From IMG/VR virus record IMGVR_UViG_3300036762_000188: DNA of 64,000 nt. One strand, written 5' to 3'. Below are positions 1 to 5,973 of the stretch, one piece after another. Under the pieces are notes generated by a model. That model was not told the DNA's origin, did no database searches, and worked only from the letters and a program-made list of their open reading frames with translations. Origin of the DNA: a virus. Its lineage: Duplodnaviria; Caudoviricetes. The position numbers and the translations under genes were made by a program. Each line of letters starts with the position of its first letter. Position 1 is the first letter of the stretch.

Positions 1-636
1 TTAGTGGGTAGCCGCTTACGCGGCACTCACTTCGATGGAGAGAAGGATGTAGACGGTAAGGTTCTTCACAGCGATGTAGATACGCGTATAGTATATGCTG
101 TACCTATAGAGGATCGCGTTAGATGCAGTAGTTTTACTAGTAGGTTTAAAGAGGATACTGTAGCCTTTTTCTTAGATGACTACGCGCATAATCTACACCG
201 CGGTAGAAGCAATGAAATGACTATGCTGTTCAGTAATAAGGCAGTGGTGCATCCAGCTATGAAACCCTTAATGGACTTTAAGCATAGGTTTATAAATGAA
301 GTATCAGCTCTAGCTCACTTAAACCGTATTAATTCGGCTATAAACAATGTAGGTAATCCTCATATGACAGATAAGCGTCTGGCAGATGAGTTATACACAT
401 CCGAGTCTTTCATGCTAGGCATGCAATCTCAGTGTAGCGTACAGTATTTAAAAGATGTAATTCTGGGGGCGATACCTAGGGAAGATGCTGTAGAAGTGTT
501 GCATGGGCGATACCAATCCTTATCAGATAGAATATCTTCCGGGTATTATAATGCGGCTCCTTCTAATGCAGAGGTTGCAGAGGTACTGTCAGAAGTACAC
601 AGAGAGGTGTATAGGATCTTCGATAATGACCTCTAA
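1..636 (+). CDS. hypothetical protein, probably 5'-truncated by the window edge
   Basis: Frame is open from base 1; no recognisable motif. Confidence 0.6.
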   Translation, partial: LVGSRLRGTHFDGEKDVDGKVLHSDVDTRIVYAVPIEDRVRCSSFTSRFKEDTVAFFLDDYAHNLHRGRSNEMTMLFSNKAVVHPAMKPLMDFKHRFINEVSALAHLNRINSAINNVGNPHMTDKRLADELYTSESFMLGMQSQCSVQYLKDVILGAIPREDAVEVLHGRYQSLSDRISSGYYNAAPSNAEVAEVLSEVHREVYRIFDNDL

Positions 637-669: not shown

Positions 670-912
670 ATGCAAGAGTTAATTTTACTAAATGAACATG
701 GTGAAGTTATATCGGAAGAAGATATAATCAAAGACAGGATTGTTAGTATGAGCGAGGCTATCCTAGCACGTTCTGACACCCTAATACGATTCTTTTCAAA
801 ACGCTACGTAGAGGCGTGGGTGCACGGGAGCTCATTAATGATGTCTTACAAAGGGCGTGAATATGTAATGGTAGTAAGTGCAGACACTGCTAAGCCCTGG
901 AGAATACCTTGA
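670..912 (+). CDS. hypothetical protein
   Basis: Strong RBS; stop overlaps an ATG (TGATG). Confidence 0.7.
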   Translation: MQELILLNEHGEVISEEDIIKDRIVSMSEAILARSDTLIRFFSKRYVEAWVHGSSLMMSYKGREYVMVVSADTAKPWRIP

Positions 913-946
913 TGCATACGCCTAGACGGTCTATACCGTCTAGGCA
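911..946 (+). repeat. duplicated remnant of the RNA ligase gene 5' end, with hairpin
   Basis: GATGCATAC plus GCCTAGACGGTCTATACCGTCTAGGCA matches 4108-4116 and 4140-4166; 11-bp stem at 920-945. Confidence 0.8.
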
Positions 947-969
947 CTAAAACTGGAGTACATACAGTA

Positions 970-1557
970 ATGGAAAAACCAATGACTAGACTGTTCGAAT
1001 GCTACGTTTATCGACCTATGCATATTGAGGCCGTTGAGATTATTGAGCGGTTAATTGCTAATGGTGCGAAGGTTTTTGACTCCATTTGTGGCATGGGGGT
1101 TGGTGGCAAAGAAGGCGTCTATGACAAGTACGATTGCTGGGGCTATCACTCAGGTTCCGGCACATACACATATGATGGGTATAGCCCCCTGGCCTCTAGC
1201 GCCAAACGGCTAACCATGCCAGAATTCCGCGCTGCTTTTCCTTGTGAGAAGTACGATGTACAAAATGACAAATGGTTGCCGGCTATAGGGGAGTGGTTTG
1301 AGGTATGGGTCGATACCGTCGGGTATTGGGCTAGAGCGCAGGCCAAGGCGCACATAGACGGTGGTGTACTGTGGCGTAACGGTTCGGACAGGTCTAGTTA
1401 CCAAGTGGCATTGCCTGATGAGGTACGTCCGCTTGAATCAGAGCGCGAGAAGTTTATTGAGGCTGCTATAGAGGCGGTTGGAGGTAGGCAGGCTGTTATA
1501 TCTGCGGATTCAGTATTCGGCAAACTCTACGACGCAGACTTTAAAGCACCGAAATGA
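970..1557 (+). CDS. hypothetical phage protein
   Basis: 195-aa ORF with upstream GGAG. Confidence 0.7.
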   Translation: MEKPMTRLFECYVYRPMHIEAVEIIERLIANGAKVFDSICGMGVGGKEGVYDKYDCWGYHSGSGTYTYDGYSPLASSAKRLTMPEFRAAFPCEKYDVQNDKWLPAIGEWFEVWVDTVGYWARAQAKAHIDGGVLWRNGSDRSSYQVALPDEVRPLESEREKFIEAAIEAVGGRQAVISADSVFGKLYDADFKAPK

Positions 1558-1591
1558 CTGATGAATTCGCGGGGCATTTTGGAGATAAGAA

Positions 1592-1792
1592 ATGAGGATT
1601 AGCAAAAAACAACTGGAACTCATCGTGCTACTAGAGCGCAGTGGAGGCATGTTCCGCAACGAACTGAATGAAGCGCAATACCCAAAGAGCCTTATAGATG
1701 CCATGATAGATAAGGGGTTGGTTGCTGAATTTAAAGGAAAACTCACAAGCTACACTGCCGACCACAAACTAAAGGCACGTAGCGTACAGTGA
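1592..1792 (+). CDS. small hypothetical protein, possibly winged-helix
   Basis: GGAG RBS; short helical basic ORF. Confidence 0.55.
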   Translation: MRISKKQLELIVLLERSGGMFRNELNEAQYPKSLIDAMIDKGLVAEFKGKLTSYTADHKLKARSVQ

Positions 1793-1992
1793 ATAGGGAT
1801 ACTGCAATGAATTTTGAGATAAAACTAAGTAGCGAAACCGGCGAAAAAGAGTTATATTTATTCGATGAATTCCAAGCCTCGTGGGACGCTAAAGTTAGTG
1901 ATATGAAAATTATTCAGTACGCCATCGGTCGAGCTGTAGAAATTGGTAAGGAAACCAAGGCTAAAGAGGTACGGGAAGCGCTCGGGCTATAG
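1789..1992 (+). CDS. hypothetical protein
   Basis: GTGA overlap with the previous gene. Confidence 0.55.
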   Translation: MNRDTAMNFEIKLSSETGEKELYLFDEFQASWDAKVSDMKIIQYAIGRAVEIGKETKAKEVREALGL

Positions 1993-2031
1993 TCCCAAGC
2001 TAGCTGGTATGTACCGAAGGTCTCATGTGTA

Positions 2032-2337
2032 CAACTAGATTTAGGTGTAAGTTCTGGGAGGTAGGCTTAGAAGCAGCCATCCTTTAAAGAGTAGGGTCTT
2101 TGCTCCTTGTGACAAAATAGCAACTCGAAGTACTTGAATTAGAGTTGTGAAAGTTGAACTAACCTCTATCCACTGATCACGGTAAGTTAGTTAAACGAGT
2201 TGCGTGGAGGTATAGTACCAAAGAGCTAGTAAGAACCTGTGAAATGACATAGGCATAGCGTGAGCGGTAGAAGTCATACCCGCCTAGCCGCCCTTTTGGT
2301 GTAACAACACACCAGAGCTTACACCTAAATCTAGTTG
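2032..2337 (+). ncRNA. structured RNA containing a split 23S rRNA H43/H44 (uL11-binding, GTPase-associated centre) mimic
   Basis: 26-bp closing stem 2032-2057/2312-2337 with one G-U; GGAGGTAGGCTTAGAAGCAGCCATCCTTTAAAGAG at 2057-2091 and GTGTAACAACACACCAG at 2299-2315; no long ORF. Confidence 0.8.
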
Positions 2338-2391
2338 GAAACCACGTATTAAAAGGCAGCGCTGTCCGCTTTGAATTATTTATTGTTGCTC
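2336..2391 (+). repeat. attC-like site 0
   Basis: AAC...GTCCGCTTTGAA...GTTGCTC. Confidence 0.5.
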
Positions 2392-2406
2392 TTGAGGGTA
2401 AGGATT

Positions 2407-2577
2407 ATGAAATATACAGAATGTAAACACGGGAACAAAGGCGCGAATTGCTTAGAGTGCATAACTGAATTTGAAATTGAACTTAAAAATGTATTTAAGA
2501 AAGGAGAACAGGTAAATAAAGTAAAAAGGCAGGCAGTAGTCGAATCACAGTACCGCGCAAATAAACGGCGCTGGTGA
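2407..2577 (+). CDS. cassette-borne small Cys/His protein
   Basis: ATG after AAGGA; CKH...CLEC. Confidence 0.55.
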   Translation: MKYTECKHGNKGANCLECITEFEIELKNVFKKGEQVNKVKRQAVVESQYRANKRRW

Positions 2578-2645
2578 GCAACCCAGAGTTAGTTTGCAGA
2601 ACGAAGCGGGGTGTAGAAATGTCAGAATTGAACGACTTGTTATCT
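2576..2645 (+). repeat. attC-like site 1
   Basis: GAGCAAC (2576-2582) is the exact reverse complement of the cassette start GTTGCTC (2385-2391); site ends in GTTATCT. Confidence 0.75.
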
Positions 2646-2906
2646 GTGATTGAGCCACAACCCCGAGGCATTAAATATATGCTTGGTGGTGAATCATGGA
2701 TGGATGAAAAAGACCAAAGCCCGATCAGACTTAATTGTGAAGAATGGGGCAATCTAGGGCCGATGGAACTAAACCCAGAGATAGAGCCTAATAAGGCCGG
2801 ACTTCGGGTCAAGTGTACGGAAACTATAGCACCAGAAAATGCCAGAGGTTTTACGGTAGTTGATGGTATTTATTATTGGACTAGATCAAGCGTGTGGGAT
2901 AGATAA
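2619..2906 (+). CDS. cassette-borne hypothetical protein
   Basis: Likely start MSELNDLLS lies within the right arm of the attC-like site. Confidence 0.55.
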   Translation: MSELNDLLSVIEPQPRGIKYMLGGESWMDEKDQSPIRLNCEEWGNLGPMELNPEIEPNKAGLRVKCTETIAPENARGFTVVDGIYYWTRSSVWDR

Positions 2907-2948
2907 CCCTTGCCATAAACGGCGGGTGAAGTCATAATGGGATTATAC
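2901..2948 (+). repeat. attC-like site 2 (shortened)
   Basis: AGATAAC is the exact reverse complement of GTTATCT (2639-2645); site ends in ATTATAC. Confidence 0.65.
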
Positions 2949-2963
2949 ACCAAGGAAGGTAGC

Positions 2964-3179
2964 ATGAATACGATTGATTTTTGTTTTTGGTTGCAAGGAT
3001 ATTTTGAAATTAGTGGTGATACTGAAATCACGAAAGAGCAGGTACAGGTCATCAAAGATCATTTGAGTCTTGTTTTTAAGCATGAGATTGACCCGTTGCG
3101 AGAGAAGCAGACTACTACACCTGCCAGCGTTTTAAATGCCGCGCATTCGCCGGTCAATGATATGCAGATTCGGTGCTAG
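2964..3179 (+). CDS. cassette-borne phage-type hypothetical protein
   Basis: RBS AAGGAAGG; FCFWLQGYFE...IKDHLSLVF pattern familiar from small phage proteins. Confidence 0.7.
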   Translation: MNTIDFCFWLQGYFEISGDTEITKEQVQVIKDHLSLVFKHEIDPLREKQTTTPASVLNAAHSPVNDMQIRC

Positions 3180-3181
3180 AC

Positions 3182-3233
3182 GTATAACCCAGAGCTTCGC
3201 CGAAGTGAGGTCTGAAACAGTGAACTGTTAGTT
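3182..3233 (+). repeat. attC-like site 3
   Basis: GTATAAC...GTTAGTT; GTATAAC pairs with ATTATAC (2942-2948) at 6/7. Confidence 0.7.
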
Positions 3234-3252
3234 CTTATCAAAAGGGTGATTT

Positions 3253-3447
3253 ATGAAGAAAGGTAAGGGTGGTCGTTGTAATTTAACAGCGTGCCAAACA
3301 CCGGAGGAGCCGGCTGAATGGTATAATCATGGCAGCCGCGCTTATTACTGTGAAGGTTGCGCAAAGATGCTGAATGAAGACCCGTTTAATAAGCGCGATG
3401 CCCAGGAAATGTTTGGGCATCCTCTTTGCACAATAGAAGAAACGTAA
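3253..3447 (+). CDS. cassette-borne Cys-rich hypothetical protein
   Basis: CNLTAC...YYCEGC putative zinc ligands. Confidence 0.7.
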   Translation: MKKGKGGRCNLTACQTPEEPAEWYNHGSRAYYCEGCAKMLNEDPFNKRDAQEMFGHPLCTIEET

Positions 3448-3498
3448 CCCAGGTTTGCTGTGAGCCACGGCGATTATCTAACCAGTGAATTGTTAGTT
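3442..3498 (+). repeat. attC-like site 4
   Basis: Stop codon lies within TAAC; shares CAGTGAAxTGTTAGTTC with site 3. Confidence 0.7.
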
Positions 3499-3517
3499 CA
3501 CGAAATGAGGATTAGTT

Positions 3518-3721
3518 ATGAATAGAATAGTAATTGACGCGGATGTTGTATGGCCTATTTCAATCGGTATGGTTCTCATAGTGCTGATAATTAATGTGAC
3601 AAGTTGTTCTGAGAAATTTAATCAACTAAAGCACGATGAAACGGTACTATACCTTAATAAAGGGTGTGAGCGAACTATTGTTGCCGGTGGTCCAGGTACA
3701 CATTGGATCTGTACCAAGTGA
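3518..3721 (+). CDS. cassette-borne small membrane protein
   Basis: One hydrophobic segment; GAGG RBS. Confidence 0.65.
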   Translation: MNRIVIDADVVWPISIGMVLIVLIINVTSCSEKFNQLKHDETVLYLNKGCERTIVAGGPGTHWICTK

Positions 3722-3770
3722 AATAACCCACAAACAGAGGCGAAGCCTGGCTTTATGCGCTTGTTAGTAG
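3718..3770 (+). repeat. attC-like site 5
   Basis: GTGAAATAAC pairs 9/10 with GTTAGTTCAC (3492-3501); site ends in GTTAGTAG. Confidence 0.7.
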
Positions 3771-3788
3771 CCTAACCGTAGAGATGAA

Positions 3789-4043
3789 ATGGAAAGAAAA
3801 GAATTCATTAAAAAGTATGGTGAGGTCGAGGTTACCTTCTCTCATTACTATAAATACACATTTACTTTTACTGGAGTCCTAGAAAATGGGAGTATTATAA
3901 GTGTGGATATTGGCGGTAACGCTGATGATATTTATCGCGAAGAGGTTAGTAATGATGAGAAACAAGTGATTTCACATTTAGAGCCGTATGCCGGGCGAGT
4001 TTATAATCAAGGCAAAGAAGTGCATAGTTTCTACGACTACTGA
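3789..4043 (+). CDS. cassette-borne hypothetical protein
   Basis: 84-aa ORF between attC-like sites. Confidence 0.7.
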   Translation: MERKEFIKKYGEVEVTFSHYYKYTFTFTGVLENGSIISVDIGGNADDIYREEVSNDEKQVISHLEPYAGRVYNQGKEVHSFYDY

Positions 4044-4091
4044 CAAAGAGCTTGCGTACCGCAGGTCACGCAGAATGAAGTGTTATTTCAC
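4037..4091 (+). repeat. attC-like site 6
   Basis: CTACTGAC pairs 7/8 with GTTAGTAG (3763-3770); site ends in GTTATTTCAC. Confidence 0.65.
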
Positions 4092-4108
4092 GAACTGAGG
4101 ATATCTAG

Positions 4109-5137
4109 ATGCATACACTTAAACTTTTGAAGGAATCAGGCTTAGACGGTCTATACCGTCTGGGCATCAGGCCTGTTAAGAGAGACGGGCTTATACTCTT
4201 GAATTATAGTCAAGTGGAAAGTCCTAAGTTTCACCCCGTAGTAAATGAATGTCGTAGCCTACTCTTAACAGAGGACTTACAATTAGTAAGCCGCAGCTTC
4301 GACAGATTTTATAATCATAGTCAAGTAGACTCTTCAGAGGATATATCTGATTGTGATGTTTTTGAGAAGATGGATGGTTCTCTTCTGAATATGTACTACC
4401 ATAACGGATGGAAGTATAGATTAAGTGGATCCCTGGATCTTAACCATGGAGTATGGGATCCTACCGGTCTAGACAGTACTACATGGAAAGACTACGTCAA
4501 TAAATGTATGGCTGACGCGCCTCTGCATCTGGCTAATGATCGTGATTGCACTTATATATTTGAGATAGTCGGTAAGAGTAATAAGATAGTAGTGCAGTAC
4601 CCTGAAGCTGATTATAGGCTACTAGCTGTACGGCATAGAGACGGGCGTTATATGCCTATACCTGAGGGTTTTAAACGCCCGCGCAGTTATAAATTCAGTA
4701 CATTAACGGAATGTGTACAGGCTGCTAACTCATTACCTAACCTAGAAGAAGGCTTCGTTATATATAAAGACGGCCCGATTTTAAAGGTCAAAAGTGACGT
4801 CTATATAAAGAGTCATCATATGCGCTTCAATGATATAAGCGCTCGTAGGGTGATGGACATGGTTGTAGAAGGTGATTATGATGAGTACCTCTCGGTATTC
4901 GCAGAACATAAACCTATGTTCGAGCCTTTTATACAAGCTGTAGAGCGTATGAGGCTTGATATGATCAGGCTTAAAGCGGAGAGTGAAGGTTATACTACTC
5001 AGGAATTGAGTAGAATGTATTCTGGAGTAGAACTTTCCATGATATGGTGGGTTAGAAGTGATCGCTCTATATATGAGAATCTAAAAAGTTCAAAGCCTAA
5101 TGCGCGCATTCGTTTATTTAAACATTACATGGAGTAG
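4109..5137 (+). CDS. rnlA: T4 Rnl1-like RNA ligase
   Basis: ECRSL, FDRFYN, motif I EKMDGSL, FE, EEGFVI, KVKS; followed by PNKP. Confidence 0.9.
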   Translation: MHTLKLLKESGLDGLYRLGIRPVKRDGLILLNYSQVESPKFHPVVNECRSLLLTEDLQLVSRSFDRFYNHSQVDSSEDISDCDVFEKMDGSLLNMYYHNGWKYRLSGSLDLNHGVWDPTGLDSTTWKDYVNKCMADAPLHLANDRDCTYIFEIVGKSNKIVVQYPEADYRLLAVRHRDGRYMPIPEGFKRPRSYKFSTLTECVQAANSLPNLEEGFVIYKDGPILKVKSDVYIKSHHMRFNDISARRVMDMVVEGDYDEYLSVFAEHKPMFEPFIQAVERMRLDMIRLKAESEGYTTQELSRMYSGVELSMIWWVRSDRSIYENLKSSKPNARIRLFKHYME

Positions 5138-5139
5138 AT

Positions 5140-5973
5140 ATGATAACATTAACGGTAGGGATACCGGGTAGCGGTAAGAGCACTTGGGCTAAAAAACAAG
5201 ATGCAGTAGAAGTTAACAGGGATATGATACGTAAATCACTATTCTGTAATGGTGATACAGACGCCATGTTTGAGTATCGGTTCACTTCAGATAAAGAGGG
5301 TATAGTCACTGCCACCTCTGTAGCGGCAGTATCTAGTGCAGTATCTGTCGGTAGGGATGTGATAGTGTCGGATACTAATTTAGTAGCCTCGACTAGGGAT
5401 AGGTATAAACTGTTGGCTAAAAACCTGGGAGTAGATTATAAGGAAGTAGTCTTCCCTGACATCGATAAGGCGTTTAAACGTAACCTACAACGCTCTATCC
5501 CGGTACCTATGCAGGTGATGTTGAATATGTATAGGCTATTCCGCCAGTATGAAGGAAGGACACCTTATACACCTGGAGCAGATCCTTGTATCATCTGTGA
5601 TCTGGACGGTACTCTGTATGACATGAACGGTCGCAGTCCTTACGCTGACGATGTGTCAGGTGATTTAGTAAACGAGGTGATACTGAACTTACTTCGTAAG
5701 GTAGAATACCCTATCATCCTCATGTCTGGTCGTAAGGAATCGGCCCGGGCTAGCACCGAGGCTAAGCTGGCAGAGGATGGTGTAGAATATGAGCGACTCA
5801 TAATGCGTGCTACTAGTGATAATAGGCCTGATTATATAGTTAAGGAAGATCTTTTTGATACGCACCTGTCTGATAGGGATGTATGGTTTATCTTAGACGA
5901 CAGGGCTCAGGTAGTTAACATGTGGAGGGCTAAGGGGCTTACATGCTTTCAAGTCGCAGATGGATATTTCTGA
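5140..5973 (+). CDS. pseT: polynucleotide 5'-kinase/3'-phosphatase
   Basis: GIPGSGKST, NRDMIR, SDTNL, HAD motif DLDGT, DDR, FQVA. Confidence 0.93.
   Translation: MITLTVGIPGSGKSTWAKKQDAVEVNRDMIRKSLFCNGDTDAMFEYRFTSDKEGIVTATSVAAVSSAVSVGRDVIVSDTNLVASTRDRYKLLAKNLGVDYKEVVFPDIDKAFKRNLQRSIPVPMQVMLNMYRLFRQYEGRTPYTPGADPCIICDLDGTLYDMNGRSPYADDVSGDLVNEVILNLLRKVEYPIILMSGRKESARASTEAKLAEDGVEYERLIMRATSDNRPDYIVKEDLFDTHLSDRDVWFILDDRAQVVNMWRAKGLTCFQVADGYF

Follow-up and report, generated by a model that had tools for sequence, protein, structure and literature searches.

The DNA analysed here, referred to as the window throughout, is a 64,000-nt (64-kb) stretch from a large, myovirus-like phage that has Vibrio phage D69 and Salmonella phage Arash among its distant relatives. 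At positions 2032–2337 of its + strand lies a non-coding RNA of approximately 306 nt, the two ends of which together rebuild part of 23S rRNA, namely the site of uL11 binding and of the translation GTPases. The surrounding genes and the parts of the RNA are given in Table 1. On the + strand of 2039–2370 no ORF of at least 30 amino acids was found. Small ORFs on the same strand are situated on either side of the RNA, and neither promoter nor terminator consensus sequences were discovered in its vicinity. No tRNA gene was located anywhere in the 64 kb.

The RNA is contained in a 3.2-kb segment between duplicated 5' ends of the RNA ligase gene (900–946 and 4097–4166). The duplicates of the ligase start region (27 nt at 93% and 28 nt at 79% identity) bracket the small ORFs as well as the rRNA-like RNA. 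Based upon this layout, the segment from 900 to 4166 looks like an accessory island inserted before the ligase gene. A 43-nt direct repeat (72% identity) was also observed at 3215–3257 and 3480–3522; it ends in ATGAA just before small ORFs starting at 3253 and 3518, and may be a repeated cassette serving the regulation or translation initiation of small early genes.

Table 1. Features of the RNA at 2032–2337 and neighbouring genes in the window (positions in parentheses in the first column, and four-digit positions beginning with 10 or 11 elsewhere, are E. coli 23S rRNA numbers)
Feature	Position	Strand	Remarks
Nucleotidyltransferase (phrog_388)	4–636		Upstream of the RNA
Closing stem, 5' arm	2032–2057	+	Pairs with 2312–2337; last bases CUGG (2054–2057) correspond to 1052–1055, top of H42
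H43 equivalent (1056–1081)	2058–2083	+	T-loop-like 1065–1073 loop, A1067 at 2069; from the Rfam LSU alignment
Junction UUAAAGAGU (1082–1090)	2084–2092	+	Contains A1088 and G1087, the partner of C1102; near-invariant across the family
Peripheral insert domain	2093–2294	+	202 nt, several helices; closed by A2093–U2294, three G-C pairs and U2097–G2290
UUUG linker	2295–2298	+	Leads from insert to H44; family-specific, without equivalent in rRNA
H44 equivalent (G1091–A1103)	2299–2311	+	Pairs G2299–C2308 and U2300–A2307; loop GUAACA; A1095 at 2303; then A1101, C1102, A1103
Closing stem, 3' arm (from C1104 on)	2312–2337	+	Complement of 2032–2057
RNA ligase 1-like protein (PF09511)	4109–5137		1.8 kb downstream of the RNA
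Polynucleotide kinase (phrog_505)	5140–5973		Downstream of the RNA ligase

Architecture of the rRNA-like RNA

For the 5' piece (2054–2092), the corresponding E. coli 23S position is obtained by subtracting 1002 from the window position. A first-pass annotation of this DNA had assigned 2054–2091 and 2299–2315 to 23S helices 43 and 44; the sequence agrees, the first piece covering the top of H42, H43 and the junction and the second the 23S rRNA from G1091 onwards, and the equivalents of A1067 and A1095 had been correctly placed at 2069 and 2303. The enclosing stem of 26 bp with one G-U that it described was recovered both by a reverse-complement check and in the minimum free energy (MFE) fold, the single U-G lying at 2052/2317. 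This fold (-105.1 kcal/mol, z -4.8, with 0/100 shuffled sequences equally stable) reproduces the H43 hairpin in addition to the closing stem. The compensatory replacement of C-G by U-A at 1092–1099 can likewise be read at U2300/A2307, and is unique to the window copy within the family described below.

The material that is extra with respect to rRNA amounts to 206 nt (the 202-nt insert and the linker) and is located between U1090 and G1091. The ends of the insert, AGGG(U) at 2093–2097 and (G)CCCU at 2290–2294, are paired with one another and are followed by UUUG at 2295–2298. An insert of about 200 nt closed by AGGGT/GCCCT had been proposed initially; this holds for the window, but not as a fixed element of the RNA, since the inserts of family members range from approximately 25 to 340 nt. 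By sequence and predicted fold, the RNA at 2032–2337 reproduces, within a stem of its own, the minimal 23S domain for binding of uL11 and thiostrepton (E. coli 1051–1108), with a variable domain branching off between U1090 and G1091. The autonomous rRNA domain of 58–60 nt folds alone and binds thiostrepton, while uL11 binding needs its tertiary fold (PMC6239185).

When the whole 64-kb window was compared with Rfam 15, no match at gathering score was found. In a permissive scan, 2056–2106 aligned to the H43 region of the archaeal LSU model (24 bits, E 4e-5), a match of only 51 nt which does not reach the LSU gathering score of 50 and has no continuity into H42 or H45, the flanks being the self-complementary stem. 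A match to snR3 in the same scan was attributed to chance. The DUF805b motif (RF02914, 35 nt) also appeared below threshold, with 10.9 bits in the window and 20.3 bits in family member L020 against a gathering score of 35.6. Its consensus (...CUuAAaAGAGUAGGcA) recalls the 3' strand of H43 and the start of the insert in the phage RNA, but it spans only some 27–31 nt of the latter and the DUF805b hairpin is different. The Infernal comparison with Rfam that had been recommended therefore gave no full-length match to any described family, and no description of such an RNA was found in the full-text literature of PMC and bioRxiv; the opinion that it belongs to no named family, and with it the novelty of the RNA, stands.

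Family members and conservation of the rRNA core

A covariance model, R1, was built from 29 short-insert members, the window not being part of the seed. R1, the kind of model that had been proposed for this RNA, matched the window at 2046–2323 with 97.6 bits (E 5e-25; model positions 1–183). In all, 79 members were collected from viral contigs, MAG and isolate contigs (phage-like in the contexts that were checked) and cultured phages. Besides the R1 match, the window copy possesses two further features by which membership was judged, namely a private stem directly outside G1055–C1104 and, after U1090, a helix-closed insert followed by UUU(G/A). Distant blastn searches recovered the H43-like sequence (40 nt) from unannotated regions of cultured phages, the carriers being Pseudomonas phages pf16, Milchi, Astolliot and UNO-G1W1, Aeromonas phage 4_4572 and Xanthomonas jumbo phage XacN1, in which it lies mostly among tRNA genes. 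Cronobacter jumbo phage GAP32 is a member as well (88 bits), and Vibrio phage 2.275.O gave a divergent partial match only. The match in Paenibacillus phage Pd_22F (L220; MZ092003.1, approximately 83.9–84.1 kb) was rejected as a mimic, being true 23S sequence: it looks genuine, with H42–H45 continuous, and represents either a true capture or host DNA that was carried along or entered the record during assembly.

An exact-pattern scan of IMG/VR returned 91 loci, among which only L035 and L079 are true rRNA. All of the others have one architecture, consisting of the private stem, GGRDGUD, the H43 loop, UUUAAAGAGU, a helix-closed insert, UUU(G/A), GCGUARNAGCACAC and the stem again; among the IMG/VR contigs listed, 34 of 80 are longer than 100 kb. 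Scanning bacterial genomes (one per species) for the 3' motif yielded about 21 real members among the 120 matches listed, most of the matches being due to chance. The taxa assigned to the MAG and isolate members include Clostridia, Ruminococcus, Chloroflexota, Acidimicrobiales, Bdellovibrio-like bacteria, Flavobacteriaceae, Thioploca and Neisseriaceae, and nearly all of these members are situated in large tRNA arrays or beside phage-type genes. The family as a whole is one of phages and phage-like contigs assigned to many bacterial phyla.

The most compact and most divergent members are L140:3124–3224 and L167:5919–6019, found on Oscillospiraceae and Eubacterium MAG contigs with tRNA arrays and tmRNA. 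Their insert measures about 25 nt, and their H43 loop, GGAUUGAAAGCGUCC, carries A1067G and G1068A together with a covarying A-U pair at 1064–1074. On L184 two family copies (3992–4348 and 5200–5390) with different inserts share one tRNA array. The tRNA-rich viral contig of L020 encodes a GOLLD RNA (Rfam RF02032, 164.8 bits) at 685–1176 on the - strand in addition to its family member at 4483–4601.

In the seed alignment, 95.7% of the cells are paired as against 73.3% in shuffles, and double-sided changes number 161 as against 52. The alignment of 79 sequences, which was fitted to R1 and is hence biased towards the model, gave 94.6% versus 69.7% paired cells and 487 versus 150 double-sided changes; for either alignment the observed values were reached by 0/500 shuffles. 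In the larger alignment 17 of 23 pairs change on both sides, and partners slid out of register are only 33–56% paired. Judged by these alignments, the secondary structure of the phage RNA family is under selection. The first-pass annotation had regarded the RNA as a selected structural mimic rather than rRNA debris and had singled out a lack of covariation among homologues as evidence to the contrary; the 79 homologues covary strongly and bear it out.

Changes on both sides were seen in 9/9 pairs of the closing stem (79 sequences) and, family-wide, in 4/4 pairs of the insert-closing stem. In H43, 99.8% of the family's stem cells are paired: 1058–1080 is G-C in 36, U-A in 26, A-U in 14 and C-G in 2 members, C1064–G1074 becomes A-U in three, and 1057–1081 becomes C-G in two. 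The 1082–1086 pair also covaries (U-A, C-G, A-U; divergent members). At the junction two pairings are possible, one of U1090 with A1101 (U-G where 1101 is G) and one of U1090 with the last linker base, which would be U-G in 44 members, U-A in 6 and C-G in L047.

Conservation of single positions was counted in subsets that had been retrieved without reference to the half being scored (n=21 for the H43 half, n=50 for the H44 half), with two misregistered rows corrected by eye. In the H43 half, G1071 and C1072 are kept in 21/21, A1067 in 17/21 (G in the remaining 4) and G1068 in 14/21. In the H44 half, G1091, C1092, G1093, A1098, G1099 and C1100 are kept in 50/50, U1094 in 49/50 and A1095 in 47/50; the linker UUU(G/A) is present in 48–49 of the 50. 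U1060 and A1088 are invariant. Since G1071/C1072, 1091–1100 and 1092–1099 are fully kept and A1067 and G1068 are looser, the positions that determine the fold are at least as constrained as the bases contacted by factors or thiopeptides. Below 1051/1108 the helix is generic, with variable sequence and length and no conserved H42 sequence, so that only the uL11 domain is copied and the uL10 site lower in H42 is not. This weakens the earlier suggestion that the RNA might titrate uL10-bL12.

The phage RNA resembles the GTPase-associated centre of 23S rRNA (1051–1108) in its secondary structure, in the near-identical sequences of the H43 and H44 loops, and in the conservation or covariation of U1060, A1088, G1071/C1072 with 1091–1100 and 1092–1099, 1058–1080 and 1082–1086. 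It differs from the centre in lying outside rRNA genes, phage-encoded among tRNA genes, in its private stem, and in the branch of 25–340 nt and the UUUG linker that follow U1090. It also has A rather than U at 1101, and A1067 and G1068 are not invariant.

Genomic setting and the insert domain

A tRNA gene is present within 2 kb of 56 of 78 members, and 280/280 such tRNAs are on the same strand as the RNA; in 38 of 78 the distance is within 50 nt, and often 0–13 nt from the stem. The RNA is probably co-transcribed with the tRNAs, and their adjacency suggests that its ends are set by tRNA processing. Since 22 of the 78 members are without a nearby tRNA, location in a tRNA array is typical, not defining. 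No conserved protein neighbour was found, the best neighbour cluster occurring in 5 of 78 loci, and a general link to RNA repair genes is unsupported, with a Rnl1 homologue at only one member locus besides the window. The window copy and its nearest relative, L076, share the RNA alone and not the flanks.

Where no tRNA is near, the closing stems are longer (median 13 vs 9 bp, one-sided p = 0.019), and the four longest (25–31 bp), including that of the window, are all in tRNA-free settings. The helix in the window has 26 bp, against a criterion for RNase III of about 22 bp or more. Processing of the long stems by RNase III instead of tRNA enzymes is plausible, in that it fits these lengths, which falls short of proof.

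The setting recalls rnaC and rnaD of phage T4, which likewise belong to a tRNA array, share its strand and are presumably released by tRNA-processing enzymes. These are stable small RNAs of unknown function with no homology to the phage RNA family, and their candidacy as members was dropped: R1 finds nothing in the T4 tRNA region (best 7.6 bits, E 0.06, with filters off).

The inserts vary in length across the family, from roughly 25 nt in L140/L167 and 47 nt in L017 to a maximum of 340 nt, and fall into subtypes. A 3' GNRA-type hairpin module, G(G/U)CACC-CCG-GNRA-CGG-UAAGG, is shared by about 20 of 59. The subtype of the window insert is common to L076 and L058, with 23 predicted pairs maintained through double changes; the support from covariation is partial. 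No similarity between the inserts and the rest of 23S rRNA was found, nor did they match Rfam, including its group I introns.

A sarcin-ricin motif is absent from the window RNA. The sarcin-ricin loop was also discarded as a family feature, the relaxed pattern occurring in 8 members as against 7.5 expected from shuffles, and the 'AGUAGAGAGG' of pf16 was discarded as such a motif, not being conserved within the pf16 insert subtype. The only convincing case is L026:3686–4070 (- strand), where a full sarcin-ricin-loop hairpin is present at an insert offset of approximately 270, with a GCAU stem, an AGUA/GAA bulged-G element and a C-G pair closing the GGGA loop. As this RNA has both a copy of the uL11 domain and a sarcin-ricin hairpin, it copies both rRNA elements of the factor-binding site.

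Possible functions of the RNA

Our leading reading, in which the function is inferred and to which we assign a probability of roughly 0.5, is that the RNA is a trans-acting uL11-binding decoy that acts off the ribosome. A host component of universal occurrence is the probable ligand, given that no phage partner gene is apparent and that the family extends over many host phyla. The RNA would be transcribed abundantly as part of a longer molecule, from which it would be freed in most members by tRNA-processing enzymes and, in the window copy with its lack of tRNA neighbours, by cutting of the 26-bp stem, probably by RNase III. Once free, it would take the rRNA fold and bind host uL11 away from the ribosome, leaving a smaller pool of uL11-bearing ribosomes. 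In the least certain step, uL11-dependent signalling, such as the activation of RelA during infection, would then be weakened.

The principle of an off-ribosome RNA imitating the rRNA site of a ribosomal protein is known from the leaders of ribosomal protein operons (e.g. the L10 leader, RF00557). Those are cis-acting 5' UTRs of bacterial operons and partial, loose mimics, whereas the free-standing phage RNA reproduces an entire folding domain almost exactly, lacks a downstream gene common to the family and matches no leader in Rfam.

Several points speak against the uL11 decoy. To strip tens of thousands of ribosomes would require tRNA-like abundance, and the conservation of A1095 (47/50) and of the H44 loop is not obviously required by a ligand that recognizes the fold only. 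The insert and UUUG linker, placed as they are inside H44, could be an obstacle, either through a change in the fold or by blocking the uL11 surface. Conn, Gutell and Draper reportedly described, in 1998, a natural base triple (1072 with 1092–1099) that changes at all three positions together; the window copy has U1092–A1099 yet keeps C1072, so its tertiary fold may be weaker.

Other readings have to be weighed against this one. That we are dealing with rRNA debris picked up by the phage, or with part of an rRNA exon split by an intron (group I or other), has next to no likelihood: Intron_gpI went unmatched on window 1900–2450 (E <= 10) and on 13 other member loci (E <= 1), inserts can be as short as about 25–47 nt, and their ends pair together and covary, unlike those of group I introns. 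The flanks, moreover, are a covarying private stem and not H42/H45, and the genuine rRNA obtained in the same searches (L035, L079 and L220) looks different. What invites the idea is that, minus insert and linker, AAAGAGU joined to GUGUAAC resembles continuous rRNA, and that the final bases of the 5' side and of the extra segment are U and G respectively, the pattern seen at group I splice sites. It is also very improbable that the RNA acts in cis or is selfish, be it as a signal for processing or stability of the surrounding polycistronic mRNA, as a uL11-sensing leader of the downstream ORF or as a mobile cassette without function in trans. The window copy lends itself to such an explanation, as it has small ORFs of its own strand on both sides, no consensus promoter or terminator nearby, an island flanked by duplicated ligase 5' ends around it, a stem of RNase III size, and flanks that differ from those of L076, with which the RNA itself is shared. 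Most members, however, are flanked by tRNAs and not by ORFs, so there is no common downstream gene to regulate, and a bare processing site would not need the entire rRNA tertiary core to be conserved.

The main rival, which we consider somewhat unlikely, is a decoy for whatever attacks H43/H44, so that a toxin of the host or of a competitor (for example an RNA ADP-ribosyltransferase or nuclease) or else a thiopeptide would be soaked up and translation would continue during phage infection. Members are located in phage tRNA arrays, for which a proposed role is the replacement of tRNAs that host defences have cleaved. A toxin directed at this site does exist (PMC8661411), in that Tre23 ADP-ribosylates bases 1095–1098 of 23S H44 and blocks the GTPase activity of EF-G (PMC8661411; PMC13768812); it is, however, an interbacterial toxin, and a literature search found no anti-phage system aimed at this site. 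The H44 loop is kept as a toxin decoy would predict (G1093 and A1098 in 50/50, U1094 in 49/50, A1095 in 47/50), whereas the variable A1067 and G1068 would weaken a thiopeptide sponge. The window RNA precedes the genes for RNA ligase 1 and polynucleotide kinase by 1.8 kb and the XacN1 copy is next to a 2'-5' RNA ligase, which counts for this reading, but the association with RNA repair is not general (one other Rnl1 locus). Distinctly unlikely, in our estimate, is a free-standing platform that binds EF-G, IF2, RF3 or RelA, with or without uL11, and retunes host translation. The domain copied is the docking site of these factors (PMC6239185; PMC8661411), but the RNA has no uL10/bL12 site and A1067 is G in 4/21. 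The sarcin-ricin hairpin in the L026 insert would agree with a platform, but the motif is absent in the window RNA and not enriched in the family (8 vs 7.5 expected), and the inserts are dissimilar to the rest of 23S rRNA. Munishkin and Wool are said to have found in 1997 that EF-G binds oligoribonucleotide mimics of both sites, which also counts in its favour.

The uL11 decoy remains the reading that we prefer. The broader proposition, that large phages of many phyla carry a free-standing copy of the uL11/GTPase centre which acts in trans, either through capture of uL11 and silencing of RelA-type signalling or as a decoy for attacks on the site, we would put slightly short of even odds. The translation-related components that phages are known to supply include tRNAs, tmRNA, ribosomal proteins and translation factors. 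A mimic of an rRNA domain would add to these a new class of phage RNA directed at translation, and with it a further level of translation control by phages, and would be the first known viral RNA to imitate a whole rRNA folding domain. Should it bind uL11, it would be a natural probe of uL11 exchange on ribosomes and of the link between uL11 and RelA during infection; should it be a decoy, it would indicate that defences or toxins directed at this part of the ribosome have gone unrecognised. Since the family is large and strongly conserved and occurs in cultured phage-host pairs (Pseudomonas putida/pf16, Cronobacter/GAP32, Aeromonas and Xanthomonas), its function is directly testable.

The RNA belongs to a widespread phage family, normally encoded in tRNA arrays, which is absent from Rfam 15 and for which a description was not found in the full text of PMC or bioRxiv. 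It merits an entry in an RNA database because phage annotations leave the locus blank or call spurious small ORFs over the RNA. In Pseudomonas phages Milchi and UNO-G1W1 (L002 1530–1661 and L004 1572–1679, respectively), small hypothetical ORFs, which are probably spurious, are annotated over the RNA on the opposite strand.
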